Translations under genes and position numbers: made by a program
NCBI GenBank assembly: GCA_000433675.1
Contig: FR893564.1
Coordinates: 52,660-116,659, forward strand
DNA length: 64,000 bases
Source: Clostridium sp. CAG:433
GTDB lineage: Bacteria; Bacillota_I; Bacilli_A; RF39; UBA660
Reading direction: 5' to 3'
Notes under the pieces: model-generated
Database searches by the model: none
The model's input: only the letters and a program-made list of their open reading frames with translations
What the model was told of the DNA's origin: nothing
Part shown: positions 12,110 through 50,539 of the stretch, one piece after another
Position numbering within the stretch: the stretch's first letter is position 1
How the letters are laid out: each line of letters begins with the position of its first letter

Positions 12110-12185
12110 GCTGAAATAGCTCAATTGGTAGAGCAACTGAATCGTAATCAGTAGGTTGCGGGTTCAATTCCTGCTTTCAGCACCA
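12110..12185 (+). tRNA. tRNA-Thr (anticodon CGT)
   Basis: Manual cloverleaf: acceptor GCTGAAA/TTTCAGC, D-arm AGCTCAATTGGTAGAGC, anticodon stem ACTGA/TCAGT with loop ATCGTAA, T-arm GCGGGTTCAATTCCTGC, encoded CCA end. Confidence 0.85.
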
Positions 12186-12252
12186 TTGACGAATCTGTTC
12201 GAACTATTCGAACTTTAAATATATGAATCAATCAGAAATGATTGATTTTTTC
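12181..12252 (+). repeat. direct repeat copy A (tRNA 3' end plus downstream; att site of element 1)
   Basis: caccaTtgacgaatctgttcgaactattcgaactttaaatatatgaatcaatca…tgattgatttttt is repeated almost exactly at 21333-21405. Confidence 0.75.
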
Positions 12253-12279: not shown

Positions 12280-12558
12280 TTGTCTATGGTAAATATTATT
12301 AAAGAAGAAATTGAAATTGAAGAATCTTTAGAATCGAGGTTAAGAGTAATATGTGATTTTTGTAATACTACACCAATAATAGAAAATGGAAGTATTAGAA
12401 GAATTGATAAAACTAATTTAACTTATATTGAACCACATAGAATATATATTAAAAACAATTTATATCTAGCATTTAATTATTCAAGTGATATATATGTTAA
12501 TAACCTAGGTAAGAAGATTAAATTATCAGAACTTGAAGATTATATAAAACAAGCATAG
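12280..12558 (+). CDS. hypothetical small protein
   Basis: 92-aa ORF inside element 1 between att and recombinase; no motif recognised. Confidence 0.35.
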   Translation: MSMVNIIKEEIEIEESLESRLRVICDFCNTTPIIENGSIRRIDKTNLTYIEPHRIYIKNNLYLAFNYSSDIYVNNLGKKIKLSELEDYIKQA

Positions 12559-12751: not shown

Positions 12752-14707
<1,956 letters not shown>

Positions 14708-14867
14708 ACAAACGAACACATTTTGTTGAAATTATATTTCAATGAAAGTGGGAAAAGTTTGTTTCATAAATATAAAAAATAAATAGTATTTAATTTTTAT
14801 ATTTAATAATTATCGTGGTACGTTATGAAATTACATTTGTAATTTTGTAAGTAGCGATAGATAATTA

Positions 14868-14930: not shown

Positions 14931-14977
14931 AAACATTTTGGATGAATCCCAAATCGTTTAAAAAGGAGGCACATTTA

Positions 14978-16360: not shown

Positions 16361-16442
16361 TGTAAAATAATTGTATAAAATCATCGTATAAGGTTATGAT
16401 TTTTACATTAAATATGTTATACTAAATAAAAGGGTAGTTGAT

Positions 16443-17336
16443 GTGTTCGTGAAAGTAATTAATGAAGATTTTAACGTGATTGAAACGCCAGCAAATGTAG
16501 AACAAATTATTAATTACATAAAAGATAGTTTAGGAAAAATGAATCTTGATAATAGCATTTTGAATGAGTTATTGTTAAATATGGATAATATAAACATTCA
16601 AATTATTGATGGTGAAACCTATTCTATTAAATTACCTAATGGTTCTTTAAGGCAAAATAAAATTTCAAATGAAGTTGGTGCGCTTAAAACAAATATGGTA
16701 ATAAATGCAAATGATGAAGAATTAAACATAATACCCGGTATAGTAATGAGAAAAAACTTCAATAATCATCAATTAATTCATGAAATTTTACATGGAATAT
16801 CATCTAGACAACATAATTTATATAATGAAGATGGTATTACATATACAAAAACAGGGACAAAAATTGATTATTATGATAACTCATTAAATGATTATCCAAA
16901 TGTAACAAATCTTTCTTCAGAAGGGTTGAATGAAGGTATAACTGAATATCTTACATCATTGTTAACAAATGAGTATAACGGAAATTATGCATCTCAGGTT
17001 GTTATTTCGAGTTTATTTATGACAAGCAATAATAATTTGTTGAATGCATATTTTATGAATGATTGCTCTGGTCTTGAAAAATTTTATGATGATGTCGAGG
17101 AAAAACAAACATTGATTACTAGACAAGATTTTATTAATTTAACATCTAAAGGTTATGATTTTGATTTAATTTCAAAAATTATCGCAGCTGGAATTGAATA
17201 TAATAGAGTACATGGAAAAGAAATGACTGAGGAAAAATTAGGCAGTTTAACACAATATTTAGATAATAATATGATTCTAGACTCAGGTTCATGGAAAGAT
17301 TTGATAGCTAATTATCAAACTAATAAAACTTTGTGA
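16443..17336 (+). CDS. putative zincin-like metallopeptidase (HExxH), paralog family member
   Basis: HEILH motif followed by LNEGITEYL; distant similarity to ORFs at 22980 and 34898. Confidence 0.45.
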   Translation: MFVKVINEDFNVIETPANVEQIINYIKDSLGKMNLDNSILNELLLNMDNINIQIIDGETYSIKLPNGSLRQNKISNEVGALKTNMVINANDEELNIIPGIVMRKNFNNHQLIHEILHGISSRQHNLYNEDGITYTKTGTKIDYYDNSLNDYPNVTNLSSEGLNEGITEYLTSLLTNEYNGNYASQVVISSLFMTSNNNLLNAYFMNDCSGLEKFYDDVEEKQTLITRQDFINLTSKGYDFDLISKIIAAGIEYNRVHGKEMTEEKLGSLTQYLDNNMILDSGSWKDLIANYQTNKTL

Positions 17337-17456
17337 ACTAAGGAAAAATTGAATACTGATTTTGACTATGCAAAAGTAATTGAAGATTAAATTGAAAAAT
17401 GAGGTATTATATATGAATGATAATTTAAAAGATGAAATGTTTGATTATATCAAAAA

Positions 17457-18482
17457 ATGTCAGATGGTGAAAGTGATAGTATTAAAAATATTTATGATAA
17501 ATTTTGCAAAAATAAAATTGAAAAAATAGATTTGTTTAAATTACAAGAGGAAATTGAAAATGAATGTGAAAAGTATGGAATAATATTAGATTATTCTAAA
17601 TATGATAGTGCAATTGTCGGATTGCCTTATGATATTAGTTTTGTAAAAATAAGTAATATAAACAATATAGATAAGGATGTGAATAAAATGGAAGAATTTA
17701 AAATTAATAATAATGTATCTTTTGAAGATGAAGAAACAAAGATAGAATATCAAAAATATTTAGACAAAATAAATGAGTATAATAAAAAAATAGCAAATGG
17801 AGAAACTCCAGAAAAGGATTTATCTTCAATAATGGATGAATTCAAAGGGAAATTTATTGTTAGACCTCAAAATGGAGAACCACAAGTAAAATCAACAAAT
17901 GATTTAGATGATTTGATTAAAAAAATAGATGATAAGTTGAATATACATTCTGAAAATAAATCTATAGACGAGCAAATTAAAGATATTGATGATAGGATAG
18001 CAGATCTTGAAAAAATAGAAAATGATTCTACAAATTTTATTCCTGATTCTTTAAAAGATTTCATTTCATTTGATAGTGAAGGATATGTTTTTCCTAATCA
18101 GAAATTACCGGTTGAACTAGAAATTGAATATGATAATTTTACTCATAATTATTATAATAGTGAAGAAAATAAAATTGTTAATAGCATTGTGAATAAAATT
18201 GTTGAACTACCATATAATGTAGAAACAACAATTGCTCAATTAATAAACTATAATCCAAAAGAAGGATTTGTTGATCCTTTGACACAGGGTGTAATTAGTA
18301 ATGCTGTTGAAAAAAAATGCAAAAACAATAATATTAATATAATTGAAATTAGAGATGGTTTTGGCGGATTAGCATATAATTATAAAATTAAAAAAGTTAT
18401 AAATGAATCAAAAGATGATGGAACACCATATGCAAAAGAATATGATAAAATTTATGAAAACACCACTCAAGAAGAGAAATAA
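17457..18482 (+). CDS. hypothetical acidic protein
   Basis: 341-aa ORF; a possible upstream start at 17413 lies in another frame (see findings). Confidence 0.4.
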   Translation: MSDGESDSIKNIYDKFCKNKIEKIDLFKLQEEIENECEKYGIILDYSKYDSAIVGLPYDISFVKISNINNIDKDVNKMEEFKINNNVSFEDEETKIEYQKYLDKINEYNKKIANGETPEKDLSSIMDEFKGKFIVRPQNGEPQVKSTNDLDDLIKKIDDKLNIHSENKSIDEQIKDIDDRIADLEKIENDSTNFIPDSLKDFISFDSEGYVFPNQKLPVELEIEYDNFTHNYYNSEENKIVNSIVNKIVELPYNVETTIAQLINYNPKEGFVDPLTQGVISNAVEKKCKNNNINIIEIRDGFGGLAYNYKIKKVINESKDDGTPYAKEYDKIYENTTQEEK

Positions 18483-18888
18483 GGATATAATAAAATATTA
18501 TTGGATTTAGAAGAAAAGATAGGTATAGATGAAAAATAAAAATAAAAAATAAAAATGGTATTTCCATTTCATTTTCTTTTTGTTATAATTTATATAGGTT
18601 GATTCATATGAATCGTTATTGCCGAGAAAAAGTTGTAGACCTCTACGTCGTCGGCACCAGATTGATAGGAAACTCGAACTATAAAAGATTCGAGTTTTAA
18701 AATACTTAATTTTATGCTTAGGTATTTATAAAATTAAAATAATTATGTCAATTTAGAAAACACACTTGCAAATTGACATACCAATTAGCGTGTGTATACA
18801 TAATTTGAGTAAGAATAATTTATAAATATAAGCATTAAAACTGCAATAAATATGATAAAATATATAACAAAGTTTTGGTGGTGTTATT

Positions 18889-21150
18889 ATGCAAGAAAGC
18901 AAATATTTCTATAATGGCATACCTTTATCTAAATATTGTAAAGATAATAATATTAATATAAGCACTATACGAGCAAGAATATGGAAAAAGAAACAAAGTA
19001 AAAAATATGAAAACTATACAGAACAAGAAATTGTAGATATGGTTATAGAGGCTTATGGTAGTGCTATTAAATATATATATAAAGGGATATCTTTAAGACA
19101 ATATTGCTTAGATAATGGTATTAATATAGGAACTATTAATTCTAGAATAAATAATCTACGAAAGAAAAATGAAAATCTGTCAAATGATGAATTAGTAATT
19201 TTAGCAATGGAAGAGTTTGATAATCAAAATTTTAGATTTTTTTATAAAGGTGTACCTTTAAAGGAATATTGTGAAAGTCATCCAGAAATAAATTACAATA
19301 CTATTAGAACATACATTAACAGAGAAAAAGAAAAGAATCCAGAATTATCTGATGAGGAACTAATTAAACAATATTTAGATAAAGAGCATAAAGGAATTTA
19401 TAAATATTACTATTTGGGAATTCCACTAAAACAATATTGTGATGAAAATAATTTGAATTATAGAAACGTAATTACATATATGAGTAGATATAGAAATACT
19501 GATAACTTTAAAGGCTTAAGTGATGATGAGTTTGTTGAGGCAATTATGGACCAATATCAACCCTTTGAGTCCAAATATCTATATAATGGACTAACTTTAA
19601 GAGAATATTGTGTTCAAAATGATTTGTCATATTATAGTGTAGTATCTTTTGTAAAAAGAAGATTAGCAAAAGACAGTACGAAGAGTATTGACTATTTAAT
19701 CGATGAAGGTATAAAAACAATAAATAGGTATGGAATAATTTACTATTATAAAGGCATACCTTTAAAAGATTATGCCGAGCAAAATGATTTGAATGCAAGT
19801 TCAATTCGTTGTGCTATTTTAAGAAAACAATTAAGAGGTAATAAAACATTACAAGAAATTATTGATGAGTGTGTTGAATCTTATCAAAAATTTTCTATCA
19901 AATATTATTATAATGGGATACCACTCTTAACATTTTGTAACGACATAGGCTTGAATTATAATACAATAATTCAAAAATATTTATATGAATATGCAGATAA
20001 AACTGACATCGGTATAGATGAAGCAATAAAACAAATTGTAGATTATTATATAGAACACCCACCAATAAAAACTAAATATTACTTCAATGATCAATCATTA
20101 ACAAAATTTTGTGATGTAAACGGTTATCCTTATCTAGCAATTTGGAGAAGAATTAAGACACTACAGTCTAAAGATGATTCATTAGATAATGAACAAATTA
20201 TAGCTTTAGCAATAAAAAAATATGAAGATAGATTACAAATAGGTAAAATAAACGAAATTTTTGATAAACTAAAAAATTCCAAGATATGTGATGTTAATGA
20301 AATAAAAAGTATATGTGAATTTTTAAAAGTTGATTTTGAAAATGTAACAGATTTAGTTAATATGGATTTTTCATATAACCAAGCAATTAATATGATATGG
20401 TATTTTTCAGATAAAAAAACTAGTAATAATTATAAAATGATTACTGATAAGAAAATAAAAGATATTTTTATTTTAGTTGATAATTTAAGAAGTTCCAATA
20501 AGGACATTGAGCAGTTTGAATTATATGATTTAATAGGAATATATAAAAGTGAGTTATATGATTCAAGAAGTGAAATATTATTAAGACAAAAAAGATATAT
20601 TTATAAAACAATATATTCATTATGTAGTAGCTATGAAATTAAAGTTAATAATAGTAATTATGAAGATTTTGAAAGCGAGATTAAGTATTATTTATTAATG
20701 GTAATAAATAGAATTAATTTAAACGAAAATGGGCAAATAATTAAATATATGGATTTGACCGTTAAAGGTTATTTTAGAACTTATCTAAAAAAATATAAGA
20801 AGCAAAATAATAGTTTATCATTAGATGATGCTAAATACTCTAGTGATAAAGGCACAAGAAGAGAAAAATCAAAAATTGACTATATTTCTGATCCTAAGAA
20901 TCCGTATGATAAAACTGAAAATACCTCATTTAGTTCAGATATGATGAAAGTATTACAATCATTATCTCCAGAGGATTTATCCCTTATTATGTTAAAATAT
21001 CAAGAAAATTATAGTGATGATGAATTGGTAAGCCATTTCGATTTAACACTTGATGAAATAAAACAAAAAGAAATTGAAATATTATCATTATTAAAAAATA
21101 ATGATAATATAAAAGTCTTAAAAAAAACTAAAAATGATAATAAAAAATGA
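18889..21150 (+). CDS. protein with eight tandem ~55-aa HTH-like repeats and sigma-70-like C-terminal region
   Basis: Repeats of Y(Y/F)YKGIPLKEYCExNNLNYNTIRTYI…; C-terminus LSPEDLSLIMLKYQENYSDDELVSHFDLTLDEIKQKE resembles sigma region 4. Confidence 0.5.
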   Translation: MQESKYFYNGIPLSKYCKDNNINISTIRARIWKKKQSKKYENYTEQEIVDMVIEAYGSAIKYIYKGISLRQYCLDNGINIGTINSRINNLRKKNENLSNDELVILAMEEFDNQNFRFFYKGVPLKEYCESHPEINYNTIRTYINREKEKNPELSDEELIKQYLDKEHKGIYKYYYLGIPLKQYCDENNLNYRNVITYMSRYRNTDNFKGLSDDEFVEAIMDQYQPFESKYLYNGLTLREYCVQNDLSYYSVVSFVKRRLAKDSTKSIDYLIDEGIKTINRYGIIYYYKGIPLKDYAEQNDLNASSIRCAILRKQLRGNKTLQEIIDECVESYQKFSIKYYYNGIPLLTFCNDIGLNYNTIIQKYLYEYADKTDIGIDEAIKQIVDYYIEHPPIKTKYYFNDQSLTKFCDVNGYPYLAIWRRIKTLQSKDDSLDNEQIIALAIKKYEDRLQIGKINEIFDKLKNSKICDVNEIKSICEFLKVDFENVTDLVNMDFSYNQAINMIWYFSDKKTSNNYKMITDKKIKDIFILVDNLRSSNKDIEQFELYDLIGIYKSELYDSRSEILLRQKRYIYKTIYSLCSSYEIKVNNSNYEDFESEIKYYLLMVINRINLNENGQIIKYMDLTVKGYFRTYLKKYKKQNNSLSLDDAKYSSDKGTRREKSKIDYISDPKNPYDKTENTSFSSDMMKVLQSLSPEDLSLIMLKYQENYSDDELVSHFDLTLDEIKQKEIEILSLLKNNDNIKVLKKTKNDNKK

Positions 21151-21332
21151 ATTTTAAATATTGTAATTCTATGTTAATTGATATATAGCTATATTGAAAT
21201 GTGCCTAAGAAACTTTTGACCTTAGGTCTTTTTATTTCGTTTTATAAATTTTTATGATATACTTATATCGATTAACGTTATTACTTACTATTATTTGTTG
21301 TCTAAAAAGTTGTCGTACTTCTTCCTTTAGGG

Positions 21333-21405
21333 CACCAGTGACGAATCTGTTCGAACTATTCGAACTTTTATATATGAATCAATCATTTTTGATTGATTTT
21401 TTTTT
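21333..21405 (+). repeat. direct repeat copy B (att site of element 1, includes tRNA 3'-end remnant)
   Basis: caccaGtgacgaatctgttcgaactattcgaacttttatatatgaatcaatca…tgattgattttttttt; preceded by tttagggcacca resembling the tRNA end ctttcagcacca. Confidence 0.75.
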
Positions 21406-21602
21406 ATCATCGTATAAAGAGTATGTAATTTTTTTATGACTATATTTATTAAAAATATGTCCATATTTTATAAATAAAAAATATTTTAATTGATGATAGA
21501 CAACTAATATACATAATAATATTTCATATTTTTCTGATATTAAATACAATTATAGATATTTTTAAATTTAATGATATAATAAATTAGAAAGAAGATGATG
21601 TT

Positions 21603-22370
21603 ATGGTACCTACAATAAAATTTAGAGAAATGACTTTACAGGAAAATATAGATATAATTAAATGGGCGTTTTATGAACAAAATGGTTCACTTTCTGTTCA
21701 TGATTTTACAGTTGGTTATTTTACAGAATTATCTGTTTTCGATAATAATACTCCACAAGAGGAAGTATATAAAAAAATAGAAGAAGTTGTTACTAAAGAA
21801 TATAATAAATATTTAGATAAAATTAAAAGTGAAACAAAAAGATATAATGATATTTGGAAAAAATATAATAACAAATATTTTTCAATGTTATCAACTTATT
21901 TTGAAATTGAATGGCCTAACATTGATGTGATAGAAGGAACTGTAGGTTTGATTCCAGTTTTCCCTAGATATTTAGATAAATTTTCTTTTTCGATTAGTAC
22001 AGATGTTGAAGAATGGAAATTAATTGAAACTTCTTCTCACGAAACATTACATTTTATATGGTTTGAAAAATGGAAACAAATTCATCCTGAAACTCCAAAA
22101 AGAGAATATGATTCACCATATATAACATGGGAATATAGTGAAATGGTAACTGATCCTATTTTGAACAATAAACCTTTTTCAGAAATTTTTGATAATATAT
22201 TTATTGAACGTGGGTATGATAGTTTTTATGAACTTACAGATAATGGTAATTTAGTAATGGATAATTTAAGAAATATTTATAGTGAAAATATTTCTGTTGA
22301 GGACAAGATGAATAAAGGATTTGAATATGTAAAAAATATTTTGGAATCAACCAATAATAATATAAAATAA
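21603..22370 (+). CDS. hypothetical protein
   Basis: 255-aa ORF with ATG and upstream AGAAAGAAG; no motif recognised. Confidence 0.45.
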   Translation: MVPTIKFREMTLQENIDIIKWAFYEQNGSLSVHDFTVGYFTELSVFDNNTPQEEVYKKIEEVVTKEYNKYLDKIKSETKRYNDIWKKYNNKYFSMLSTYFEIEWPNIDVIEGTVGLIPVFPRYLDKFSFSISTDVEEWKLIETSSHETLHFIWFEKWKQIHPETPKREYDSPYITWEYSEMVTDPILNNKPFSEIFDNIFIERGYDSFYELTDNGNLVMDNLRNIYSENISVEDKMNKGFEYVKNILESTNNNIK

Positions 22371-22979
22371 GTTGGCAATTATATGAATATTTATTTAAAT
22401 AGAATTGGAAATTAGTTTAAAAAATCAAAATAAAATTTCTATTGAACATATAATATAATTTTAAAAAAATAGGTTAAATACCTATTTTTTAATTTATAAT
22501 GTTTTTTATATAGTTTAATTCATATTAAACATTATTACTAAAAAGTTATTTGGGAAAAATTTTTACTTTAATTTTCTTTGATATAGTAGAAAAGGTATAA
22601 TCAAATTTTTCATAGAAATTGACAAAAAAATACTTGTGTGTTAGTATAACGATCATCTTTTTTTTAGATGAAAATTTTATTATGGGATTTTTAGTTTTAC
22701 GGTTAAGTACATACCAACTTTAATAAATAGAATGGTGGCATATTTTATAAATTATTGTTATTTTTTTATTTGATAAAATTCATTTAATATTAATCTTTTT
22801 TTGTAAAGTGTTATAAATATCTATGATGCTCCAACTATGTAGTAATTATATTGCTAAATAAGCATTAATTTAATAAAAAAGAAAACATTATTATGAAGAT
22901 GAGAAAGAAATATGAAAAAATAATAGCGATATGAAGATATAATTTTGTATGACATAATGATTGAATAGGTGGGATATTA

Positions 22980-23927
22980 ATGAAAGATAGAATTATGAAA
23001 TTAGATAAAAATATTCAAGAATACATAGGCTTAGGTTTAAGAGCGGGATTATTTAATAAAAATAATCTTGAGAGGATAGTATCAAGATTAGAACGTGTTA
23101 ATTTTTCTGTAGATAATAACAATCCTGGAGATGCACAAACGGAATCTATAAGGGATAGAAATAATCCAAGAATATCATATGGATTAAATGTAAAAATGAA
23201 TGAAAGAAGAACATTAAATTCAGGAAGATATTATTTTAAAGACGAGGTATTATTTCATGAATTAACACATTGCATTAACGGTATTTATGAAAATTTTATG
23301 GAAAATTTATCTTTATGGTTTGATTTAGATAAAATGTTTGAAAATAATTTTAGTGTTAAGAGTGATGCAATAGAGTCTATGGCAAATGATCCAAATTATA
23401 GACAAAAGTCTTATTCATGGTTAGTTTTAGATGAATTTGTTGCGCAGTATGTTGCACAATTATTGGTTGAAACAAAATATAATAAAAAAATATATGTTAA
23501 TGAAAGCAAACTAATAAGACAATCAAACCCTTCAATAAATGTAAACAATAATTTTGCAGATTATCATGAATTTTATGATATTGTAATTAATTTTATAAAG
23601 CCAATATATGGTAATGATTTAAATAAATTTATTGCTGACTCGTTAGATTCAACAGTTATAAATAAAATATTTAGTTATTATAAAAATGAACCAAGTGGTT
23701 TTGTAAAATTATATAGTTTACTGGGTGAAATGGGAAATATAGGATTTGCAGTTGCATCTCCTAATTTTACTGAAGTTCAGCGAGCAACTGATTATGATAT
23801 GATTGCTAGAGATTCTCATAATTTTTATTTACATTATAATGAGGTACTAAAAATAATAAATATTATTCTTGATAGAAAATCATATATTCCTGGTATTGAA
23901 GGTAATTTTGGAGGATTAAAACAATAG
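22980..23927 (+). CDS. putative zincin-like metallopeptidase (HExxH), paralog of 34898..35857
   Basis: LFHELTHCINGIYE motif; N-terminal GLGLRAGLFNKNNLERIVSRLERV matches YLGTKIGLFNNLNIERVVSRLERV of the 34898 ORF. Confidence 0.55.
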   Translation: MKDRIMKLDKNIQEYIGLGLRAGLFNKNNLERIVSRLERVNFSVDNNNPGDAQTESIRDRNNPRISYGLNVKMNERRTLNSGRYYFKDEVLFHELTHCINGIYENFMENLSLWFDLDKMFENNFSVKSDAIESMANDPNYRQKSYSWLVLDEFVAQYVAQLLVETKYNKKIYVNESKLIRQSNPSINVNNNFADYHEFYDIVINFIKPIYGNDLNKFIADSLDSTVINKIFSYYKNEPSGFVKLYSLLGEMGNIGFAVASPNFTEVQRATDYDMIARDSHNFYLHYNEVLKIINIILDRKSYIPGIEGNFGGLKQ

Positions 23928-24033
23928 TCAAATATTATAAAAATATTTTATAATAAGAATTAATTTATAGGTGATAACATGACAAATTTAGATATTAAAA
24001 ATATTACTTGAAAACTTGTTTTTTTATATATAG

Positions 24034-24061
24034 AATCAATCAGAAACGATTGATTTTTTTT
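24034..24061 (+). terminator. third copy of the tRNA-Thr-associated terminator hairpin
   Basis: GAATCAATCA-gaaac-GATTGATT followed by T9; about 40 bp resemble the distal part of the element-1 att repeats. Confidence 0.55.
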
Positions 24062-24382
24062 GTTATAATTAAAAAAAGTAAAAGAATTTATGGAAAATAA
24101 AATTGATATCATGATTGAAGATTCTTCAACTAAAATTAATGAATTAGTAAAAATAGTTAAAGTGTTATATTATGATACAAGATATAATAGAAATATTGAA
24201 AACGAAAATATTATTAGAGTATATAGTTGGTATGATATTTACATGAAAATAAATGAAATAAAAAAATTATGAGTAACTCAAATTTTTTTAGGGCAATATG
24301 AAAACTACTTCCATTAAATTGAAAGTAGTTTTATTAATTTAAAAATACATTTGTATAATCATTATTGCAAGTGTAAAAAATT

Positions 24383-24901
24383 TTAATCATTATTTTTATT
24401 AAATATTTTTCTGATTAGTTTTTTTGCCCCATTTTCTTGTTTGGATCCAGCAGGATATTCAACACCTTCAGGTAAATTCATTTTTAAATCGTCATGTTTA
24501 AACCAATAAACATCTCTTAAAGAATCAAATTTAAATTCAAGTAATTCAAGTTGGGATATCATATTAATATTTTTTTTCTTTTGTTTTGGCGACATAGAAT
24601 TAAATTTCTCAGCAATTGCGTTCATTTCGTCTGCAATACTTTGAGCTAGTGCAATATGTTCTTCATCAGATAAATCTTTAACTTCATTATAATCTATCAT
24701 CCAATCAATATTTTTAAAGAATTCAATATCTTCTGGTTTATTAAATTCTTTAAAGTCATATCTATTACTATCATCAACCACAAAAATACCAAAACCAAAA
24801 CTCTTCATAAAAACAGATGCAGGTATTGGTAAATCACAATGATTTAAGAAAGTAATATCATTCATTTGAACATAAGCCGCATTATCAGTAATTATTTTCA
24901 T
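24383..24901 (-). CDS. hypothetical protein, tandem paralog A
   Basis: 172 aa; shares MKII(T/C)DN…YVQ, FF(K/S)N(I/L)D…Y(N/D), RD(V/A)(Y/L)WFK…LPxxxEYP with the ORF at 25136. Confidence 0.5.
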   Translation of the reverse strand: MKIITDNAAYVQMNDITFLNHCDLPIPASVFMKSFGFGIFVVDDSNRYDFKEFNKPEDIEFFKNIDWMIDYNEVKDLSDEEHIALAQSIADEMNAIAEKFNSMSPKQKKKNINMISQLELLEFKFDSLRDVYWFKHDDLKMNLPEGVEYPAGSKQENGAKKLIRKIFNKNND

Positions 24902-25135
24902 GCATTAAAACCTCCTTCAATTAGGTTATATAATAGCATAATTTTATTTACGTTTCAATACTTATATTTATTGACCTTTAAAAAATTTGATTAAAAATTC
25001 TTTTTATGATAGTATATATGACAATTTAAAAAAGGTGGGGTTTAAATGGCTACAAAAATACAAAAACTCTTCAAAGATTAAATAAAAACTAATAAATCAA
25101 AAAAACTACTTTTAAGGTAGTTTTTATTAAAATGA

Positions 25136-25636
25136 TTAAGAAATCTTTTTTTGTTCTCTTTTAGTCAATAATCTTGAAAGTCTTTTTACTTTTTTGTCGC
25201 TTTTAATTTCTGTTTTTTCATTATCATCATATTCTATAGGGTATTCAATATTATCTGGTAATTCAAATTTTAAATATTTTTGTTTAAACCAAAGTGCATC
25301 CCTTAATGAATATATTTTGTATTCTTGTTTCAAAATATCATTTTTATTACTTTTTTCAGAATCAGTATTTTCCATTTTTATTTTTTCTAAATTTGCTTTT
25401 TGTATTAATTTAATTACATCATCTTCATCTATATTCTTTATATCATCATAATTAACTATAAAATCTAAATTACTAAAGAACTCTATATCTTTTGGACTAC
25501 TAAAAAGTTCAAATTCATATATATTTTCATCATTGATATTTATAAGTTTTAGATGATCAACATTTTCAGTATTATTTATTACAAAAGCAATATCTTTTTT
25601 TTGTACATATATACCATTATCACATATAATCTTCAA
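25136..25636 (-). CDS. hypothetical protein, tandem paralog B
   Basis: 166 aa; paralog of 24383..24901. Confidence 0.5.
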   Translation of the reverse strand: MKIICDNGIYVQKKDIAFVINNTENVDHLKLININDENIYEFELFSSPKDIEFFSNLDFIVNYDDIKNIDEDDVIKLIQKANLEKIKMENTDSEKSNKNDILKQEYKIYSLRDALWFKQKYLKFELPDNIEYPIEYDDNEKTEIKSDKKVKRLSRLLTKREQKKIS

Positions 25637-25802
25637 TTTTTTTACCTTCTTTCAAACTATTATATAATACCACAAATTTAAAAATAAATGTAGTAAATAA
25701 AATCTAAAAAATATGTAAAATTTTGTTTGCCCAAATTATTTGACAATTCTTATGACTTGTGCTATTATAATGGTCGTTATTTTCGAAGAGGGGGAGTCTT
25801 TT

Positions 25803-28043
25803 ATGGAAGAAACTAGAAAATCAACTGTAATTAGGGATTTAATAATAAAAATATTTCTAATACTTTTATTTGTATTTTTAATAACAATATTATTTCCTAT
25901 GCCTAACTTAACTGCATTTTATGATTCTGTATTTAATAATAACGTACAAAGCATGAAAGATGCTGCAGATAGTTATTTTACTAAAGATAGAATGCCTGAA
26001 AAAGTAGGAGATTCAGTAAAATTAACACTTCAAGATATGCTTGATAAAAAATTAATTTTACCATTCTTAGATAAAGATGGTAACGAATGTGATACTAAAA
26101 AATCATATGTTAAAGTAACAAAAGAAGAAAAAGAATACAAGCTAGAGGTTCATTTATCATGTCCTAATAAGGAAGATTATATTATTGAACCAATTGGATG
26201 TTATAATTTTTGTCCAGAACAAACAGTAAATTGTAATTGTTCATGTAGTGGTGCACAAGAAGAACAACCAACAACATCAGATGATGGTAAGGTTACTGTA
26301 AATAAAACAAATCCAACACCAAGTAATAATAATGATGGTGGTAAATACAAATTACAATATTTATATACAAGAACATTAACTGATATAAATTGGAATACTG
26401 GTAATTATCAATCAAATAAAGAAGACGAAAATGATAATGTAAGATTAGTAGATACTAAAACACAATATACAGGTCAAAAGAAAGTATCTGCTGGATCAAC
26501 ACAATATAAACATGTAAAATATGCTTATAAAGATAATTGGTCAGTAGTAACAGATTGGACTGATGAAGTTAAACCTATAACAGATAAGTTCAAATTATAT
26601 GCAACAAGAACATTATATACAGGTTATAAAAAAGTAACTAAAGATGTAATGAATTATAAACATATAAAATATGGTTATAGAGATAACTGGGTAATTGATA
26701 CAGGTTGGACTTATGATGTGATCCCAGAAACAACAAAAATTAAATTATATGCAACAAGAACATTATATACAGGTTATAAACCATATGTTGAAGAAACAAC
26801 GCAATATAAACATGTTAAATATGCAAATAAAGATACATGGACTGAAACAGGATGGTCAACAACTAAAAGAACTGAAAATAGTAATACTAAGTTAGTTGAT
26901 ACTAGATATACAGTTAGAAAAACAGTTAAAACAACTAAAGGTTCTTGGTCAGATTGGATAAAAGAAGGTGTTTGGAGAGATTCAAAACCTGCTGATTCAA
27001 GTACTAAACAATGGTATGGACCATATAATGAAAAAACTATAAGTACTTGGAAAACACTATATGATTCATGGAGTACAACAGAATTACAACAACCTATTTC
27101 AGGTAATAGAAGATATGAACTTTTAACTCAACATCCAGATGAATGTACAGATGCATGTAATGGTAATTCTACTGTAATGAGATATTATTACAGAGTATAT
27201 GAACTTCAAGAATCTAAACAATATATGTATTACTATAGAACATATTCTGAAACATCATCTACATCAACAGATGAAAAGGTTGTATCAAATCCAAAATCAT
27301 ATACAGATAATGGATATACAATTGTAAAAACAGAATATAAGTATAAAATAAAATCAAGTGATAATGAGATTGTTGATACAAAGTGGACAAATTCGAAAAC
27401 ATCACCATCAGGTTATGTATATGCTAATGAAAAGAAAGTAACTAAAACAACTAAATATAAAGCATTAGATAAATGGGTTACAAGTAAAGAAAAATTAGGT
27501 GAATATACATCTTACGTAAAAACTAAAAAACAATATAAATATAAAAGAAATAACCCAGAGAAATATGTTATTGGTACAATATGGACTACATCAAAAACAT
27601 CACCATCAGGTTATGAATATACTGGTGAATATACAAAGACAACAAAAACAACTTATGAACCATATAATAAATGGGTTACTAATAAAGACAAATTAGGTGA
27701 ATATACATACTATATAACAACAAAAACTCAATATAAATATAAACAAAATAATCCAGAAAAATATATTGAATCAACAATATGGACAGATTCAATAAATCCA
27801 CCTGCTGGATATACATATACTGGAGAATATAAAACAAATAGTTCAACATCATATGTAGATTTAGGTTACTGGGTTGATGATATAAAAGACTTAGGTGAAT
27901 ATACACATAATGTTAAAACTAGAAAATTATATAGATATAAATATAGAACAGTAATAACAAAAACTGAAAGCAGATGGTTTGACAAAAATCCTGGTGGAGA
28001 CTGGGTATATGCAAATCAAACAAGAAAAGTGAGAGTAAACTAA
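25803..28043 (+). CDS. large membrane-anchored repetitive protein (Cys-rich segment plus two families of ~50-aa Y/K/T-rich repeats)
   Basis: ATG 25803 after GGGGGAG; N-terminal TM; CYNFCPEQTVNCNCSCSG; repeats YKHVKYAYKDNW…KLYATRTLYTGYK (exact 39-bp DNA repeats at 26592 and 26742) and KWTNSKTSPSGY…LGEYT…KTQYKYK. Confidence 0.55.
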   Translation: MEETRKSTVIRDLIIKIFLILLFVFLITILFPMPNLTAFYDSVFNNNVQSMKDAADSYFTKDRMPEKVGDSVKLTLQDMLDKKLILPFLDKDGNECDTKKSYVKVTKEEKEYKLEVHLSCPNKEDYIIEPIGCYNFCPEQTVNCNCSCSGAQEEQPTTSDDGKVTVNKTNPTPSNNNDGGKYKLQYLYTRTLTDINWNTGNYQSNKEDENDNVRLVDTKTQYTGQKKVSAGSTQYKHVKYAYKDNWSVVTDWTDEVKPITDKFKLYATRTLYTGYKKVTKDVMNYKHIKYGYRDNWVIDTGWTYDVIPETTKIKLYATRTLYTGYKPYVEETTQYKHVKYANKDTWTETGWSTTKRTENSNTKLVDTRYTVRKTVKTTKGSWSDWIKEGVWRDSKPADSSTKQWYGPYNEKTISTWKTLYDSWSTTELQQPISGNRRYELLTQHPDECTDACNGNSTVMRYYYRVYELQESKQYMYYYRTYSETSSTSTDEKVVSNPKSYTDNGYTIVKTEYKYKIKSSDNEIVDTKWTNSKTSPSGYVYANEKKVTKTTKYKALDKWVTSKEKLGEYTSYVKTKKQYKYKRNNPEKYVIGTIWTTSKTSPSGYEYTGEYTKTTKTTYEPYNKWVTNKDKLGEYTYYITTKTQYKYKQNNPEKYIESTIWTDSINPPAGYTYTGEYKTNSSTSYVDLGYWVDDIKDLGEYTHNVKTRKLYRYKYRTVITKTESRWFDKNPGGDWVYANQTRKVRVN

Positions 28044-28091
28044 TTACTTTCATTTTTTTTTATGATAAAATAATTATTACGGAGGCATAAT

Positions 28092-30251: not shown

Positions 30252-30277
30252 TAAAGGGAAAAATCATAAAAATAATA

Positions 30278-30306
30278 TTTACACTTTATTTATGGTATGT
30301 TATAAT
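30278..30306 (+). promoter_or_regulatory. sigma-A promoter upstream of rpsB
   Basis: TTTACA-N17-TATAAT with about 100-nt leader. Confidence 0.6.
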
Positions 30307-30414
30307 AATTTTGGCTTTGAAAAAACACAGATATTGATTTACAAACCATGTGCTCATATGGGTGGAGAGTAAAAAAGATATATCTGGAAGAAAAACAAAA
30401 GGAGGAATGAATTT

Positions 30415-31365
30415 ATGGCAGTAGTTTCAATGGGATATTTATTAGAAGCTGGTGTTCATTTTGGTCATCAAACAAAAAGATGGAATCCAAAAATGAAAGA
30501 ATATATCTTCACTGCAAGAGAAGGTATATATATTATCGATTTACAAAAAACAGTTAAAAAAATCGAAGAAGCATATGTTGCTTTAAGAGAAATCGCACAA
30601 AATGGTGGAAAGGTTATCTTTGTTGGTACAAAGAAACAAGCTCAAGAAGCATCTATGGAAGAAGCAATTAGATCAGATAGTTACTATGTAACAGAAAGAT
30701 GGCTTGGAGGAACTTTAACAAACTTCAGAACTATCAAAAGAAGAATAGGATACTTAGATCAAGTTGAAAAAATGGAAGCAAATGGAACTTTAGATGTTCT
30801 ACCTAAAAAAGAAGTTATTAAAATTAAGAAAGAATATGACAAGTTAAATTCTTATTTCTGTGGAATTAGAAATATGAAAAAATTACCTGATGCTATGATC
30901 ATTACTGATCCAAAGAAAGAATATATAGCAATCAAAGAAGCAAGAAAACTTGGAATACCTGTATTTGGTATTGTTGATACTAACTGTGATCCAGATTTAG
31001 TTGATTATGTAATACCTGCAAATGATGATGCTGTAAGAGCTGTTAAAATCATTTTAGGAGTACTTGCTAATGCAATTAATGAAGGTACAGATAGAGAAAT
31101 GGTAGACTTTTTAACTGATGACGATAAAAACAAAAATGCTAATAAAGAATCAAAAAAAGAATCTAAAAAAAGCGAAACTAAAGAAGTAAAAGCAGAAGCT
31201 AAAAAAGAAGAAGTTAAAGAAACTGTTGAAGAAATCAAAGCCGAAGATAAAGAAGATTTATCTAAAAAAACAGTTGCTGAACTAAAAGAAATGGCTAAAG
31301 CTGAAGGTATCGAAGGATACAGCAAACTTAAGAAAAGTGAACTTTTAGAAATTTTAAATAAATAG
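30415..31365 (+). CDS. rpsB: 30S ribosomal protein S2 with K/E-rich C-terminal extension ending in a Rho_N/SAP-like motif
   Basis: [27 protein letters not shown] canonical S2 start; 316 aa versus typical ~240-260; tail …[31 protein letters not shown]. Confidence 0.9.
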
Positions 31366-31388
31366 TAATCTAAAAGGAGGATATATAA

Positions 31389-32258
31389 ATGAATACAAGT
31401 TTAATTAAAGAATTAAGAGATTTATCAGGTGCTGGATTAATGGATTGTAAAAAAGCACTTGAAGCTAGTAATAATGATATCGATGAAGCAATCGATTATC
31501 TAAGAAAAAAAGGTATTAGTAAAGCTGCTAAAAAAGCAGATAGAGTAGCAGCAGAAGGATTAAGTACAGTTGTTATTGATGGAAATAATGCATCAATAGT
31601 TGAAGTTAACTGTGAAACAGACTTCGTTGCTAAGAATGAAAAATTTGTAAATTTAGTAAATAAAATTGCTGATTTAATCGTTAAAAACGATGTTAAAACA
31701 ATGGAAGAAGCAATGAGTTTAAGTACTGAAGAAGGTACTTTAAACGATACTATAGTTAATTTTACAGCAACTATAGGAGAAAAAATTAGTTTTAGAAGAT
31801 TTGCAAGACTTTCAAAAACTGATTCACAAAACTTTGGAAGTTATATCCACATGGGTGGTAGAATCGCTGTATTAACTTTATTAGAAGGTGCAGACGAAGA
31901 AACTGCTAAAGATGTATCAATGCATGCTGCAGCTATGAGACCATCATATGTAAAAAGAGAAGATGTTCCAGCAGAAGAAGTTGAAAGAGAAACATCAGTA
32001 TTAAAAGAACAAGCTATGAATGAAGGAAAACCTGCTGAAATAGCTGAAAAAATGGTTAATGGTCGTATAAATAAATTCTATAAAGAAATTTGTTTAGAAG
32101 AACAAGACTTCGTTAAAGATTCTGATATGACTGTTGGTGCCTTTGTTAAATCTAAAAACGGTTCTATAGTTAATATGGTACGTTTTGAAGTTGGTGAAGG
32201 AATCGAAAAGAAAGAAGAAAACTTTGCTGAAGAAGTAATGAACCAAATAAAAGGATAA
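31389..32258 (+). CDS. tsf: elongation factor Ts
   Basis: IKELRDLSGAGLMDCKKAL UBA-like N-terminus and dimerisation core; 289 aa. Confidence 0.9.
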   Translation: MNTSLIKELRDLSGAGLMDCKKALEASNNDIDEAIDYLRKKGISKAAKKADRVAAEGLSTVVIDGNNASIVEVNCETDFVAKNEKFVNLVNKIADLIVKNDVKTMEEAMSLSTEEGTLNDTIVNFTATIGEKISFRRFARLSKTDSQNFGSYIHMGGRIAVLTLLEGADEETAKDVSMHAAAMRPSYVKREDVPAEEVERETSVLKEQAMNEGKPAEIAEKMVNGRINKFYKEICLEEQDFVKDSDMTVGAFVKSKNGSIVNMVRFEVGEGIEKKEENFAEEVMNQIKG

Positions 32259-32266
32259 TAATATAG

Positions 32267-32299
32267 GAGAAATAAGAAATTATTTCTCTTTTTCTTTTT
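32267..32299 (+). terminator. rho-independent terminator after tsf
   Basis: GAGAAATA-agaaat-TATTTCTC followed by TTTTTCTTTTT. Confidence 0.75.
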
Positions 32300-32360
32300 A
32301 ATGTAGTACTTGAAGAAAAAAATAATATATAGTAAAATATAACTATATTGAAAGGAAAAA

Positions 32361-32912
32361 ATGAAAATGGATGAAATTATTTTAGAAGCAAATGAAAAAA
32401 TGGAAAAAACTATTGAAAATCTTTTAGAAAGATTTAAAACAATAAGAGCAGGTAGAGCAAATCCTGCAATATTAGATGGCGTAAAGGTAGAATATTATGG
32501 TACACCAACACCACTTAATCAATTAGCAACCGTATCTGTACCAGAAGCAAGAAGACTTCAAATTAAACCATTTGATAAATCTTGTCTTGCTAATATTGAA
32601 AAGGCTATATTTGAAGCTGATTTAGGATTAACTCCTAATAATACTGGAGAACTTATATTTATTGCTATTCCAGAACTTACTGAAGATAGAAGAAGAGAAT
32701 TTGTTAAACAAGCAAAAACTCTTGCTGAAGAAGCTAAAATAGCACTTAGAAATATTAGACAAGATGCTAATAATGCAATTAAAAAAGATGAAGAAATAAA
32801 CGAAGATATGGAAAAGTCTTTAATGAATGAAGTACAGGATTTAATTAATGATTTTAATAAAAAAGTAGATGAAAAATTAAAAGAAAAAGAAGAAGAATTA
32901 ATGACAATATAA
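32361..32912 (+). CDS. frr: ribosome recycling factor
   Basis: ILDGVKVEYYGTPTPLNQLATVSVPEARRLQIKPFD; 183 aa. Confidence 0.9.
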   Translation: MKMDEIILEANEKMEKTIENLLERFKTIRAGRANPAILDGVKVEYYGTPTPLNQLATVSVPEARRLQIKPFDKSCLANIEKAIFEADLGLTPNNTGELIFIAIPELTEDRRREFVKQAKTLAEEAKIALRNIRQDANNAIKKDEEINEDMEKSLMNEVQDLINDFNKKVDEKLKEKEEELMTI

Positions 32913-32931
32913 TTCTTCTTTAGGAGAATTT

Positions 32932-33627
32932 ATGAAAGAAAAAGTTAAAATTGTAGTAGTCTTAGTAGTAATATTATTTATATTTTTAGGAATATTCTTT
33001 ATGGGGAAAAAGGTATCTTTAAATAATTATCTAAATAAAACAAATAAATATTCAAATAAAATAAATTATACAACTGGAATAACACTTAATATAGAAAGCT
33101 TAGATAAACAATCAAAAATTGAATATACTATCGCTAGAACTAAAGGTATTAAGAATATTATAATTAGTAAGTATGACGATGAAGAACTTACTAGTAGTAT
33201 TAATAAATATTTAGTAAAAGAAAATGGTAAAACAAAATGTTATACAAAAGATAGTAGTTCAAATAAAGTATCTTGTGATGCTAAAGAAGATTTTAAAATT
33301 GATTATAAGAAATTAAAGAAAAATATAATTAAAATAAAAAAAGTAGATAATGAAGTAATTAATAAGGTTAGTTATAAAAAGTATACTGTATCTATGAAAA
33401 AAAGCGATGCATATAATTTAATATATGATAAAGATGTTATGGATGAAAAAAAATTAAACGGAACAGTAGATGTTCAAATATTAGTTGATAAATCCACAAA
33501 TTTTATTTATGAAATAGATTATGTAATTGATAATTTAAATTCAGATAGTAATAATAAAATAAAATATAGTGTACAAATAAACAATTTTGATTTTAACAAT
33601 AATAATGAAATTAATTTACCTTTTTAG
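32932..33627 (+). CDS. hypothetical membrane-anchored protein
   Basis: N-terminal TM (VVVLVVILFIFLGIFFMG), K/N-rich soluble part. Confidence 0.45.
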   Translation: MKEKVKIVVVLVVILFIFLGIFFMGKKVSLNNYLNKTNKYSNKINYTTGITLNIESLDKQSKIEYTIARTKGIKNIIISKYDDEELTSSINKYLVKENGKTKCYTKDSSSNKVSCDAKEDFKIDYKKLKKNIIKIKKVDNEVINKVSYKKYTVSMKKSDAYNLIYDKDVMDEKKLNGTVDVQILVDKSTNFIYEIDYVIDNLNSDSNNKIKYSVQINNFDFNNNNEINLPF

Positions 33628-33660
33628 AAAAAAAGTGCATTTTATAGGCACTTTTTTTAT
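33628..33660 (+). terminator. putative terminator
   Basis: AAAAGTGC-attttatag-GCACTTTTTTT. Confidence 0.55.
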
Positions 33661-33695
33661 TTTCTATCATAAATTAAAGTAGAGGAGTGATAAGA

Positions 33696-34226
33696 ATGTC
33701 TAATTATAAAGAAATTGTAACTAAGGCAGTAATAGGTAAAGGTAAAAAGTATTTCAAAAATAAGTATAGTGTTAAAAGTGAAGTTGTTCCAAGTACAATA
33801 TTAGGTTGCTGGATAATTAATCATAAATTTAAAGGATATGTACAAGGTGATGATGTAGTAGTTGATGGTTCATTTGATATAAATATATGGTATTCATATG
33901 ATAATGATACAAAAACAAATGTTATTAATGAAACAATTAAATATAATGAACTTATTAATGTTAAAACAAAACTTGATGTAGATTTTAATGATTCAGAAAT
34001 TATTGTTAGAGTACTTAAACAACCAAGTTGCGGTAATGTACAAATAAATGGTAATACTATAGATTTTGATATAGAAAAGGAACTTGGTATAGAAGTTGTT
34101 GGCGATACAAAAGTTAAAATAATGGTTGAAGATGATGAAGATAAATGGGAAGTATTTGATGATAATGTAACTGATGAAACACTAGAAGAAATAGATAATG
34201 AAGTAAATGAGGACTTTTTAGAGTAG
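33696..34226 (+). CDS. hypothetical protein
   Basis: ATG 33696 with GAGGAGTG upstream; acidic C-terminus; family not recognised. Confidence 0.45.
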   Translation: MSNYKEIVTKAVIGKGKKYFKNKYSVKSEVVPSTILGCWIINHKFKGYVQGDDVVVDGSFDINIWYSYDNDTKTNVINETIKYNELINVKTKLDVDFNDSEIIVRVLKQPSCGNVQINGNTIDFDIEKELGIEVVGDTKVKIMVEDDEDKWEVFDDNVTDETLEEIDNEVNEDFLE

Positions 34227-34263
34227 TTGTCAACAAAAATAGTTGACACTACTTCTTTTTTTT
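34223..34263 (+). terminator. rho-independent terminator
   Basis: AGTAGTTGTCAAC-aaaaat-AGTTGACACTACT followed by T8. Confidence 0.7.
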
Positions 34264-34271
34264 AGTATAAT
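34243..34271 (+). promoter_or_regulatory. rpsP promoter whose -35 lies within the upstream terminator stem
   Basis: TTGACA 34243-34248, 17-nt spacer, TATAAT 34266-34271. Confidence 0.5.
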
Positions 34272-34305
34272 TGACTTACAGTGAGTGGAAAAGGAGGAGT
34301 TAAAT

Positions 34306-34572
34306 ATGGCAGTTAAGATTAGATTAAAAAGAATGGGAGCTAAAAAAAGACCATTCTACAGAGTTGTAATCGCTGATTCAAGAAGCCCAAGAGATGGTAA
34401 AACAATCGATGAAATTGGTTACTATAATCCAATTGATGGTGAAATCAAAATTAAAGAAGAAGATGCTTTAAAATGGTTAAGAAATGGTGCTATCGCAACT
34501 GATACAGCTAAAAACGTATTATCTAAAGCAGGAATTATGACTAAATTCCATGAAGAAAAGAGCGGTAAATAA
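34306..34572 (+). CDS. rpsP: 30S ribosomal protein S16
   Basis: [31 protein letters not shown]; AGGAGG 7 nt upstream of ATG 34306. Confidence 0.9.
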
Positions 34573-34574
34573 TA

Positions 34575-34817
34575 ATGACTTTAGTAGAATTAACAGAAAT
34601 GATTGTTAAAAGTCTTGTTAGTGATCCAGATTCTATTTCAGTAAAAGAATTTCCTAATGATGATGAAATAATTATAGAAGTAGTTGTTAAAGAGGAAGAT
34701 ATGGGTTCTGTAATAGGAAGAGAAGGAAAGATTGCTAATTCTATTAGAACTGTAGTTCAAGCAAGTTCTTATTTAAAAGATAATAAAAGAGTAAAGATTA
34801 ATATCAGTTCTTTTTAA
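34575..34817 (+). CDS. KH-domain RNA-binding protein (YlqC-like)
   Basis: …VIGREGKIANSIRTVV KH GxxG motif; conserved position after rpsP. Confidence 0.8.
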   Translation: MTLVELTEMIVKSLVSDPDSISVKEFPNDDEIIIEVVVKEEDMGSVIGREGKIANSIRTVVQASSYLKDNKRVKINISSF

Positions 34818-34837
34818 AGATATTAATCTTTTTTTTT
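34816..34837 (+). terminator. putative terminator
   Basis: AAGAT-atta-ATCTT followed by T9. Confidence 0.5.
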
Positions 34838-34897
34838 GCTTTTTTTCTTTATTTGTGGTAGAATAACAAAGCTTTAAAAATTAAAGGGGGAATTTTT

Positions 34898-35857
34898 ATG
34901 AATAGCATGTTAGATTTTAGAATAAGAAAATTACATCCAAAAATGCAAGAATATGTATATTTAGGTACAAAAATAGGGCTATTCAATAATTTAAATATAG
35001 AAAGAGTTGTTAGTAGACTTGAAAGAGTAGAAATTGGAATTAACAATAATATGAATTCATATGCACATACTCTTCCTATTAGAACTGAAGATGAAAATGG
35101 AAATTATGTAAGTAAAGGAATAAATATAGATATTAATAAAGATAAAGTAGACTCAAAAATGAGACAAGGTTTATTTTATTTTGAAGATGAAATATTATTC
35201 CATGAATTTTCTCATGCAGTTAATGGTATATACGAAGAATGGTTCGAAAAATTAATGCTTGGATATGATGTAGATGAAAAATTTATATCTACAAGTCCTA
35301 CAAAAGAAGATATGGTAAAAAATTTGTCAAATAATCCTGAATTTAGACAAATTAAATATGCTGGAATATTATTAGATGATTTTGTATCACAAACAATAGC
35401 CCAAAAGATGATAAATTATAAATATGAAAGAAATATATATCCTGATAGAGAAAGAATTTTTGAATTGTCAGAACCACCAATTAAATGTAATTGTAGTCTT
35501 AATGGTTGTTGGCAGTTTGAAAATGTTGCTAAAAAGTTTATAGAATCAATGTATGGTGTATGTGATGTTGATCAATTTTGTATTGATGCAATAGATAAAG
35601 GAATAATAAATAAAATCTTTTCAAAATATATGAAAAGAAAAAGAGGTTTTATAGATTTATATAAAATATTAGGATATATGGGAAATGTTTCATTTTCTGT
35701 TATTAGTAAAAATTTAGATGAATATACAAAAGCAACAGATAGAGATATGGCCGCAAGAAATCCAAAAAAATTATTCCGTTCAATAAAAGAATTAAATGGT
35801 ATATTAGATAAAAATGCAGAAATTGAAAAAGTAAAAATGGGATTTGGTGCGTTTTAA
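34898..35857 (+). CDS. putative zincin-like metallopeptidase (HExxH), paralog of 22980..23927
   Basis: LFHEFSHAVNGIYEEW motif; collinear similarity to the 22980 ORF over most of its length. Confidence 0.55.
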   Translation: MNSMLDFRIRKLHPKMQEYVYLGTKIGLFNNLNIERVVSRLERVEIGINNNMNSYAHTLPIRTEDENGNYVSKGINIDINKDKVDSKMRQGLFYFEDEILFHEFSHAVNGIYEEWFEKLMLGYDVDEKFISTSPTKEDMVKNLSNNPEFRQIKYAGILLDDFVSQTIAQKMINYKYERNIYPDRERIFELSEPPIKCNCSLNGCWQFENVAKKFIESMYGVCDVDQFCIDAIDKGIINKIFSKYMKRKRGFIDLYKILGYMGNVSFSVISKNLDEYTKATDRDMAARNPKKLFRSIKELNGILDKNAEIEKVKMGFGAF

Positions 35858-50533: not shown

Positions 50534-50539
50534 TAAGCA

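Follow-up and report, generated by a model that had tools for sequence, protein, structure and literature searches.

Two candidate families of zincin-like proteins in Clostridium sp. CAG:433, one of them carried by an integrative mobilizable element

Three genes for proteins of about 300 residues with an HExxH motif, called here A1, A2 and B (Table 1), lie in a 64,000-nt stretch of contig FR893564.1 of Clostridium sp. CAG:433 (the window; all coordinates count from its start), a human-gut organism of low GC content (about 24%) that has the spore-coat gene cotE. On sequence comparison, A1 and A2 are true paralogs, forming family A, and B belongs elsewhere, in a family of its own (family B). Structure models point to a zincin-like fold in both families, and we consider it quite probable that they share the fold and the biochemistry of zinc-dependent proteases. 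B is cargo of an integrative mobilizable element (IME) inserted at a tRNA-Thr gene, A1 is a chromosomal gene flanking this integration hot spot, and A2 is a self-contained gene cassette fixed in the chromosome. The explanation that joins fold, chemistry, genomic setting and an accessory role in genetic conflict is, as a whole, the one towards which we lean. The conflict role taken by itself, which is clearest for B and is drawn from position only, is put forward as tentative.

Two families with a predicted zincin fold

A1 and A2 align end to end in BLASTP, with 39% identity over 316 residues (E = 1e-79), while B has no significant similarity to either of them (E = 0.04 and 0.025, in unrelated segments). 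When the profiles of the two families are compared with hhalign, E is 0.075 and the probability 0.75%; a broader family A profile set against B gives 0.0033 and 9.7%, respectively. Both alignments are collinear, placing HExxH on HExxH and LDE on LNE, and B would be related to family A at most at the level of fold or clan. A first-pass annotation of this DNA had grouped the three open reading frames (ORFs), all of which are present where it placed them, into one three-member paralog family; the grouping stands for A1 and A2, and B falls outside it. The motifs quoted there for A1 and A2 are found, except that A2 reads LDDFVSQ rather than LDEFV(A/S)Q, and the HEILH and LNEGITEYL segments of B are seen in its translation. 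The true start of B is likely the GTG at 16449, giving MKVIN, which matches the homologs.

The HExxH motif of the three proteins is not a product of chance, since such strings are rare in the window (only five when all stop-free stretches of 100 residues or more in the six frames are counted), the motif is invariant in homologs, and purifying selection acts on the family A genes. In family A, 13 of 13 closer relatives (at least 52% identity) retain H, E and H, and in family B all 30 homologs retain HExxH together with NEGITE. Between strains, the ratio of nonsynonymous to synonymous substitution rates (dN/dS) is 0.33 for A1 and 0.13 for A2, with values of 0.0–0.28 for flanking housekeeping genes; A1 and A2 are both under purifying selection. 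The exact A1 protein is found in 134 public contigs and the exact A2 protein in 158.

Both families are sparsely represented. A word-indexed search of 5.8 billion proteins yielded about 60 clusters for A1 (52–100% identity) and two for A2, and HMMER, run exhaustively with a profile over 1.84 billion representatives, retrieved only 68 family A proteins at E <0.001. The family A matches that were examined are all metagenomic sequences. Two scans of GTDB genome contigs gave no confirmed relative, and not even the identical protein, which may mean that the representative genome differs or is masked. For family B there are 45 clusters (44–93% identity). The first-pass annotation could not assign a named family, and this holds in wider searches: A1, A2 and B match nothing in Pfam, NCBIfam, PADLOC, PHROGs or PDB sequences, and sequence and profile searches of the PDB return no meaningful match. 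Among 47 diverse members of family A and 30 of family B there are only scattered sub-threshold matches to assorted zincin models (SprT-like, PhageMetallopep, YgjP-like, DUF4932, Astacin, M91 and M57), presumably on the HExxH segment.

AlphaFold2 models built from the family alignments have a mean predicted local distance difference test (pLDDT) score of 88.8 and a predicted template modelling (pTM) score of 0.89 for A1, and of 92.8 and 0.91 for B. In the A1 model, H93, E94 and H97 lie on a helix (residues 86–99) and LDE on another (143–167); in the B model, H113, E114 and H117 lie on helix 108–119 and NEGITE on helix 160–175. HExxH is thus on an alpha-helix in both, as in clan MA, and both show the mixed sheet above the active-site helix and the helical lower subdomain of a thermolysin-like alpha/beta fold. 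The order of parts is also shared, with a small beta-sheet preceding the HExxH helix, the acidic motif on the next long helix and a C-terminal helical bundle to follow. The insert between the HExxH and acidic helices is helical in the A model and beta in the B model. Structure prediction therefore supports, for A1 and B, the zincin-like metallopeptidase reading suggested in the first-pass annotation. A Foldseek search of viral structures (BFVD) gave no match at E ≤0.001.

A1 and A2 would be two-domain proteins of a rare and unnamed family, whose N-terminal part forms a minimal zincin catalytic subdomain of short helices, a three-stranded sheet and the HExxH helix, followed by a second long helix with (L/I)D(E/D)xxAQ and by the C-terminal helical bundle. 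All three proteins are probably cytoplasmic, as no N-terminal signal sequence is apparent in their translations. The predicted chemistry of family A is zinc-dependent hydrolysis of peptide bonds in an intracellular substrate. In A1, His93, His97 and an acidic residue of the LD(E/D) helix would bind the zinc ion, with Glu94 acting as general base. B, a separate family of similar size and layout, would combine its HExxH with GLNEGITE as the 'NEG..E' third-ligand helix of a gluzincin; the third-ligand candidate here, the invariant N163-E164-G165...E168 on helix 160–175, is convincing at the sequence level. Zinc binding and catalysis in families A and B are both inferred.

No sequence-level relation to the gluzincins of MEROPS clan MA(E) was found in Pfam and PDB hidden Markov model searches. 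The groups compared were M1 (aminopeptidase N and LTA4 hydrolase), M9 collagenase, M30 hyicolysin (lugdulysin) and M4 thermolysin. The spacing from HExxH to the acidic residue is about 46 residues in B and about 54 in A, as against 18–20 in M1 and M4. The window proteins are also much smaller, have no signal peptide and end in a different C-terminal bundle. The GLNEGITEY of B resembles the third-ligand motif of the M1 enzymes. However, neither family matches Pfam Peptidase_M1 or has the M1 combination of GxMEN with HExxH-x18-E; the GxMEN exopeptidase motif is absent from A1, A2 and B, and the equivalent strand of B reads GALKTNM. The small cytosolic zincins SprT/Spartan, ImmA/IrrE (M78), CapP and the minigluzincins (selecase, proabylysin) differ from A and B, which have no membership in their Pfam families, no partner repressor gene and no DNA-binding or Zn-ribbon module, and which have an additional helical domain of about 150 residues. 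We conclude that A and B are new and unnamed families, both predicted to have a gluzincin-like fold, and that they are very narrowly distributed members of a superfamily of enzymes that is itself well known.

Two other ways of reading the proteins themselves have to be weighed. That A1, A2 and B might after all be one paralog family, spread with mobile elements, is very unlikely: besides the negative BLASTP result between B and the A proteins and an hhalign probability of 0.75–9.7%, the stretch between the two motif helices is modelled as helical in A and as beta-sheet in B, the exhaustive family A profile search did not retrieve family B proteins, and A1 and A2 both lie outside mobile elements. 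The proteins could instead be pseudoenzymes, zincin-fold proteins with a binding or scaffold role in which HExxH is a leftover. This has some footing in the wider family A, where 15 of 50 full-length representatives have a degenerate motif (for example FRELSY, FNQLTH or FKIFSQ) and are still full length. A loss in 30% of representatives means that catalysis is not essential for every member, and it counts against the protease reading, as do the ambiguity of the family A third ligand, which could be D151 or E152, and the failure of E104 in the NGIYE motif of A1 to be conserved beyond close relatives. D151 is invariant, and position 152 is E, or D in A2 and in two homologs (P0107 and P0111). On the other side, an intact HExxH is accompanied by E or D at the LDE site in all 35 representatives that have it, the window copies and their homologs of at least 52% identity keep H, E, H and the acidic residue under purifying selection, and both motifs are invariant throughout the family B homologs. 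The refuting observation named in the first-pass annotation, an HExxH that is not conserved across the family, is thus partly made in the wider family A, although not in the window copies and their closer relatives. Judging by sequence, some family A members are probably non-catalytic and the window copies are intact; since their motifs are invariant, a pseudoenzyme reading is unlikely for the window copies, and we give it a low probability for the families overall. Zinc-dependent proteolysis is the reading with which we continue.

Genomic settings of the three genes

Table 1. Positions of the three genes, their motifs and associated features in the window (nt, counted from the window start)
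Feature	Position	Strand	Description
tRNA-Thr (CGT)	12110..12185	+	Integration target; found by ARAGORN and Rfam
attL	12180..12251	+	Left copy of 72-bp direct repeat; begins in the last 6 nt of tRNA-Thr
92-aa ORF	12280..12558		Homologs adjoin the recombinase gene in L013 and L016
Large serine recombinase	12767..14707	+	Pfam Resolvase and Recombinase
Mob_Pre (MobV-type) relaxase	14942..16360	+	Pfam PF01076, E 3.4e-12
B	16443..17336	+	Predicted gluzincin-like protein of family B, 297 aa, GTG start; cargo of the IME
B HEILH	16779..16793	+	aa 113-117
B LNEGITE	16926..16946	+	aa 162-168
341-aa cargo protein	17457..18482	+	Downstream of B; no Pfam, PADLOC or PHROG match
753-aa protein	18889..21150	+	Right end of element; five repeated helix-turn-helix-like modules
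attR	21332..21403	+	Right copy of 72-bp direct repeat
255-aa ORF	21603..22370	+	Between attR and A1; its HExxH is HETLH at nt 22038
A1	22980..23927	+	Predicted zincin-like protein of family A, 315 aa
A1 HELTH	23256..23270	+	aa 93-97
A1 LDEF	23427..23438	+	aa 150-153
Third copy of att hairpin-terminator part	24033..24059	+	1 mismatch; 106 bp downstream of A1
A2	34898..35857	+	Family A paralog, 319 aa; between rpsP-KH genes and PFOR
A2 HEFSH	35201..35215	+	aa 102-106
A2 LDDF	35372..35383	+	aa 159-162

The limits of the element that carries B are set by comparison with element-free contigs (L-numbers denote other contigs or loci compared with the window). When L024 and L025 are aligned to the window, a 72-bp overlap maps to both attachment (att) repeats, and since it occurs at both ends, the window carries an IME of 9.15 kb. 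A repeat search finds the same 72-bp direct repeat (repeat families D2 and D5). In the same-species element-free contigs L024–L026, the PfkB, Smr and tRNA-Thr genes run directly into the 255-aa gene and A1. The element reads, in order, 92-aa ORF, serine recombinase, Mob_Pre relaxase, B, 341-aa protein and 753-aa protein with multiple helix-turn-helix (HTH) modules. The 341-aa protein has partial similarity to a 363-aa protein encoded two genes downstream of a B homolog in L016. The 753-aa protein has PHROG matches to HTH, sigma-factor, excisionase and small-terminase HTH regions and is common to sister elements, being 99.9% identical in L021 and 90% in L033. Its gene holds repeat family D1; at 18910–19791, a 45-nt unit occurs five times, every 165–170 nt or so except for one gap of 333 nt, and these units encode repeated HTH-like modules of the form 'Y.G(I/L)(P/T)L..YC..N'.

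IMEs that combine a serine recombinase with a MobV relaxase form a known class, which is reviewed in PMC5704250. The element of B is like other IMEs of Firmicutes in its backbone of serine recombinase and MobV/Mob_Pre relaxase and in its tRNA-flanking att site. This likeness concerns the vehicle; a zincin cargo is apparently undescribed, as far as the present searches show. Homologs of B (46–70% identity) again adjoin a Mob_Pre relaxase and a serine recombinase in L013, L016 and L017, and a homolog of 59% identity stands alone between cell-division genes and spoIVF-like/rplU genes (L018–L020). The only recurrent neighbours of family B are the element's own relaxase and recombinase, and no cargo gene recurs.

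Sister elements have the same recombinase-relaxase backbone and att site, but the cargo that fills the slot downstream of their relaxase varies: L021 has an OLD/GajA/AriA-like ATPase-TOPRIM protein there, L034 a PD-T4-6/Stk2-like kinase and L033 a ThsB-like TIR protein. This cargo matches PADLOC models, whereas A1, A2, B and the 341-aa neighbour in the window do not. As the sister elements carry defence-type genes in this place on the same backbone, the slot behaves as an exchangeable defence-gene cassette, a mini defence-island platform, which here holds B and the 341-aa protein. The 92-aa ORF, recombinase and relaxase of the backbone are conserved across this family of elements (window 12180–21403, L021, L033, L034, L016 and L013).

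From attR, A1 is 1.6 kb further to the right. It is present in the element-free strains and is therefore no part of the element, but a chromosomal gene flanking an integration hot spot; in related strains (L032–L034) the tRNA-Thr or att sequence is found immediately upstream of an A1-like gene. A third copy of the att hairpin-terminator part follows A1 where no chance match is expected (0), and is found in the element-free strains as well, so that an ancient insertion event at A1 is possible. The A1 allele is considerably more diverged than its flanks, with a synonymous divergence (dS) of 0.21 as against 0.02–0.08.

Between attR and A1, the 255-aa ORF has, downstream of its HETLH, the sequence WEYSEM. 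It has no Pfam or PDB match, and its hhalign alignments to A and B cover the motif only; by its sequence, it could represent a third zincin-like family. A cluster mate of this ORF at 90% identity in Coprobacter fastidiosus was rejected as a clustering artefact, as BLASTP finds no similarity. On the other side of A1, the reverse-strand genes at 24383–24901 and 25136–25636 encode adjacent paralogs of 172 and 166 residues, which share about 35% identity and match no family; a homolog of 59% identity is cargo inside the L034 sister element. The gene that follows, at 25740–28043 upstream of priA, encodes 767 residues with no family match and has internal tandem repeats, especially at 27327–27941, where off-diagonal BLAST matches show an offset of about 198 nt and about 72% identity.

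The position of A2 between the rpsP-KH genes and PFOR, pointed out in the first-pass annotation, recurs in six other contigs. The gene is served by a strong ribosome-binding site of its own, GGGGG; there is also a possible extended -10 element, and the stop codon is followed by an AT-rich hairpin and T8. A2 evolves much as its neighbours do. The rimM-trmD-rplS genes, which had been expected in its place, were not found among the window ORFs scanned against Pfam, a scan that did not extend to the ORFs at about 42–57 kb. An Rfam scan found tRNA only, and no riboswitch upstream of A1 or A2. Of the mobile-element association proposed for all three loci, the part concerning B is secured by the att repeats and the element-free strains. 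It does not extend to A1, which had been placed in a remnant of the element, or to A2, as a fixed chromosomal gene.

Across about 13 distinct contexts, family A has no conserved operon partner. NUDIX genes occur within one or two genes of it in three contexts (L007, L010 and L059) and a PriA gene near it in two lineages, both patterns being inconsistent. Other members are found in variable islands: in L067 one that splits an EPSP-synthase-family gene and also contains Abi_2 and Bro-N, in L069 one with a TraG-type coupling protein, and in L007 one with a type IV secretion system coupling protein, MerR and a Y-family polymerase. With no conserved neighbour of family A and no recurrent cargo beside B, both families appear to act alone. 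A 720-aa variant of family A with a long low-complexity C-terminal extension rich in E, K and N is encoded in L051–L057 (P0108-like); a PriA homolog is encoded two genes upstream of it, and A1 is itself found upstream of the window's priA, an arrangement that may reflect residual synteny.

Several other features of the window deserve mention in their own right. A perfect sigma-70 consensus promoter, TTGACA-17-TATAAT, lies directly upstream of rpsP (34243–34271) and overlaps a terminator-like hairpin after cotE. Ribosomal protein S2 (30415–31365) has an unusual C-terminal extension, a Rho_N domain at residues 281–314 (E = 4e-8). In L021, L024 and L025, a gene for a 1385-aa Metallophos_2 protein follows tsf where the window has frr (32258–32361), another strain-variable insertion, inside the rpsB-tsf-frr cluster. 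Synteny of the window with other strains (loci L001 and L002) ends just after recG, and the region downstream (about 41900–53100) is strain-variable and contains defence-type genes: an HTH and D12-methyltransferase pair (47512–48899) and AbiTii (52352–53026) in the window, a ThsB-like TIR protein in L001, and Abi_C, DUF8370 and a faint reverse-transcriptase match in L002. Further on, genes at 58818–59728 and 60512–61231 include a RelB-antitoxin/NUDIX fusion (196 aa) and then a MazG-like protein (101 aa), with a collagen-triple-helix-repeat protein of 239 aa nearby.

Possible roles and significance

We propose that these proteins may have an accessory part in conflicts with phages or other mobile DNA, for example as stand-alone proteases activated by a trigger. 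For B, the defence genes in the same slot of the sister elements suggest a defence or conflict role. A model for such a protein is Lit (peptidase U49), encoded by prophage e14, an HExxH protease of about 300 residues that works alone. A peptide of the phage capsid triggers it to cleave EF-Tu, and abortive infection results. The likeness of Lit to B is by analogy only, both being single-gene HExxH proteins of about 300 residues on an integrated element. Pfam Peptidase_U49 (PF10463) is matched neither by the window proteins nor by the 47 members of family A and 30 of family B, and no solved Lit structure was among the matches. Lit and EF-Tu are both mentioned in PMC9712102.

By this analogy, B and possibly family A may represent a new stand-alone, protease-based defence against phages or mobile DNA: a Lit-like, trigger-activated cytosolic zincin that would cut an essential protein of host or invader, be swapped in the defence slot of IMEs and occasionally become fixed in the chromosome, as in A2. 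In this specific form the idea is doubtful, and we attach a similarly guarded expectation to the view that B is defence cargo.

Several observations weigh against a conflict role. The idea of defence is guilt by position only. Neither A nor B is matched by any PADLOC or PHROG model, and searches of viral contigs, phage records and plasmid records gave no relatives of either family. In its evolution A2 resembles the genes around it and does not look like an arms-race gene, and some copies have housekeeping settings, among them A2 itself, L010, L066 (next to a release-factor gene) and the family B homolog of L018–L020.

A zincin encoded on an element could also serve the element or the cell in other ways. 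As regulatory proteases of the ImmA/IrrE/CapP kind, the proteins would cleave a cognate HTH repressor and thereby control excision and transfer of the element, or a stress or defence regulon. We regard this as unlikely: Peptidase_M78 (PF06114) is not matched, with E of up to 1 for the window proteins and up to 0.01 and 0.05 for other members, no conserved adjacent gene for an XRE-type or other HTH repressor is seen in any context, and A2, like several other copies, stands alone among housekeeping genes. B might, on the other hand, be an anti-defence factor of the element, similar to the ArdC metalloprotease, expressed early in the recipient and neutralising restriction or other defences of the host. 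Its chances seem equally slim, since B has no ArdC-N domain, the N-terminal single-stranded-DNA-binding domain of ArdC, and the cargo of the sister elements is of defence type. B also has no Pfam match, and ArdC is not among the structural matches of the B model. An accessory conflict role, tentative as it is, thus remains our proposal for B.

If the assignment presented here is correct, it would add two families without a Pfam or NCBIfam model to the proteins of zincin fold, both confined to poorly studied low-GC gut Firmicutes. By themselves, such families would be a modest addition to the catalogue of metallopeptidases. With HExxH so often lost, family A would also offer a small natural experiment on transitions from enzyme to pseudoenzyme. 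The slot at tRNA-Thr is a place to mine for further defence candidates, and B is a concrete candidate, cheap to test, for a new single-gene protease that may act in defence or counter-defence.

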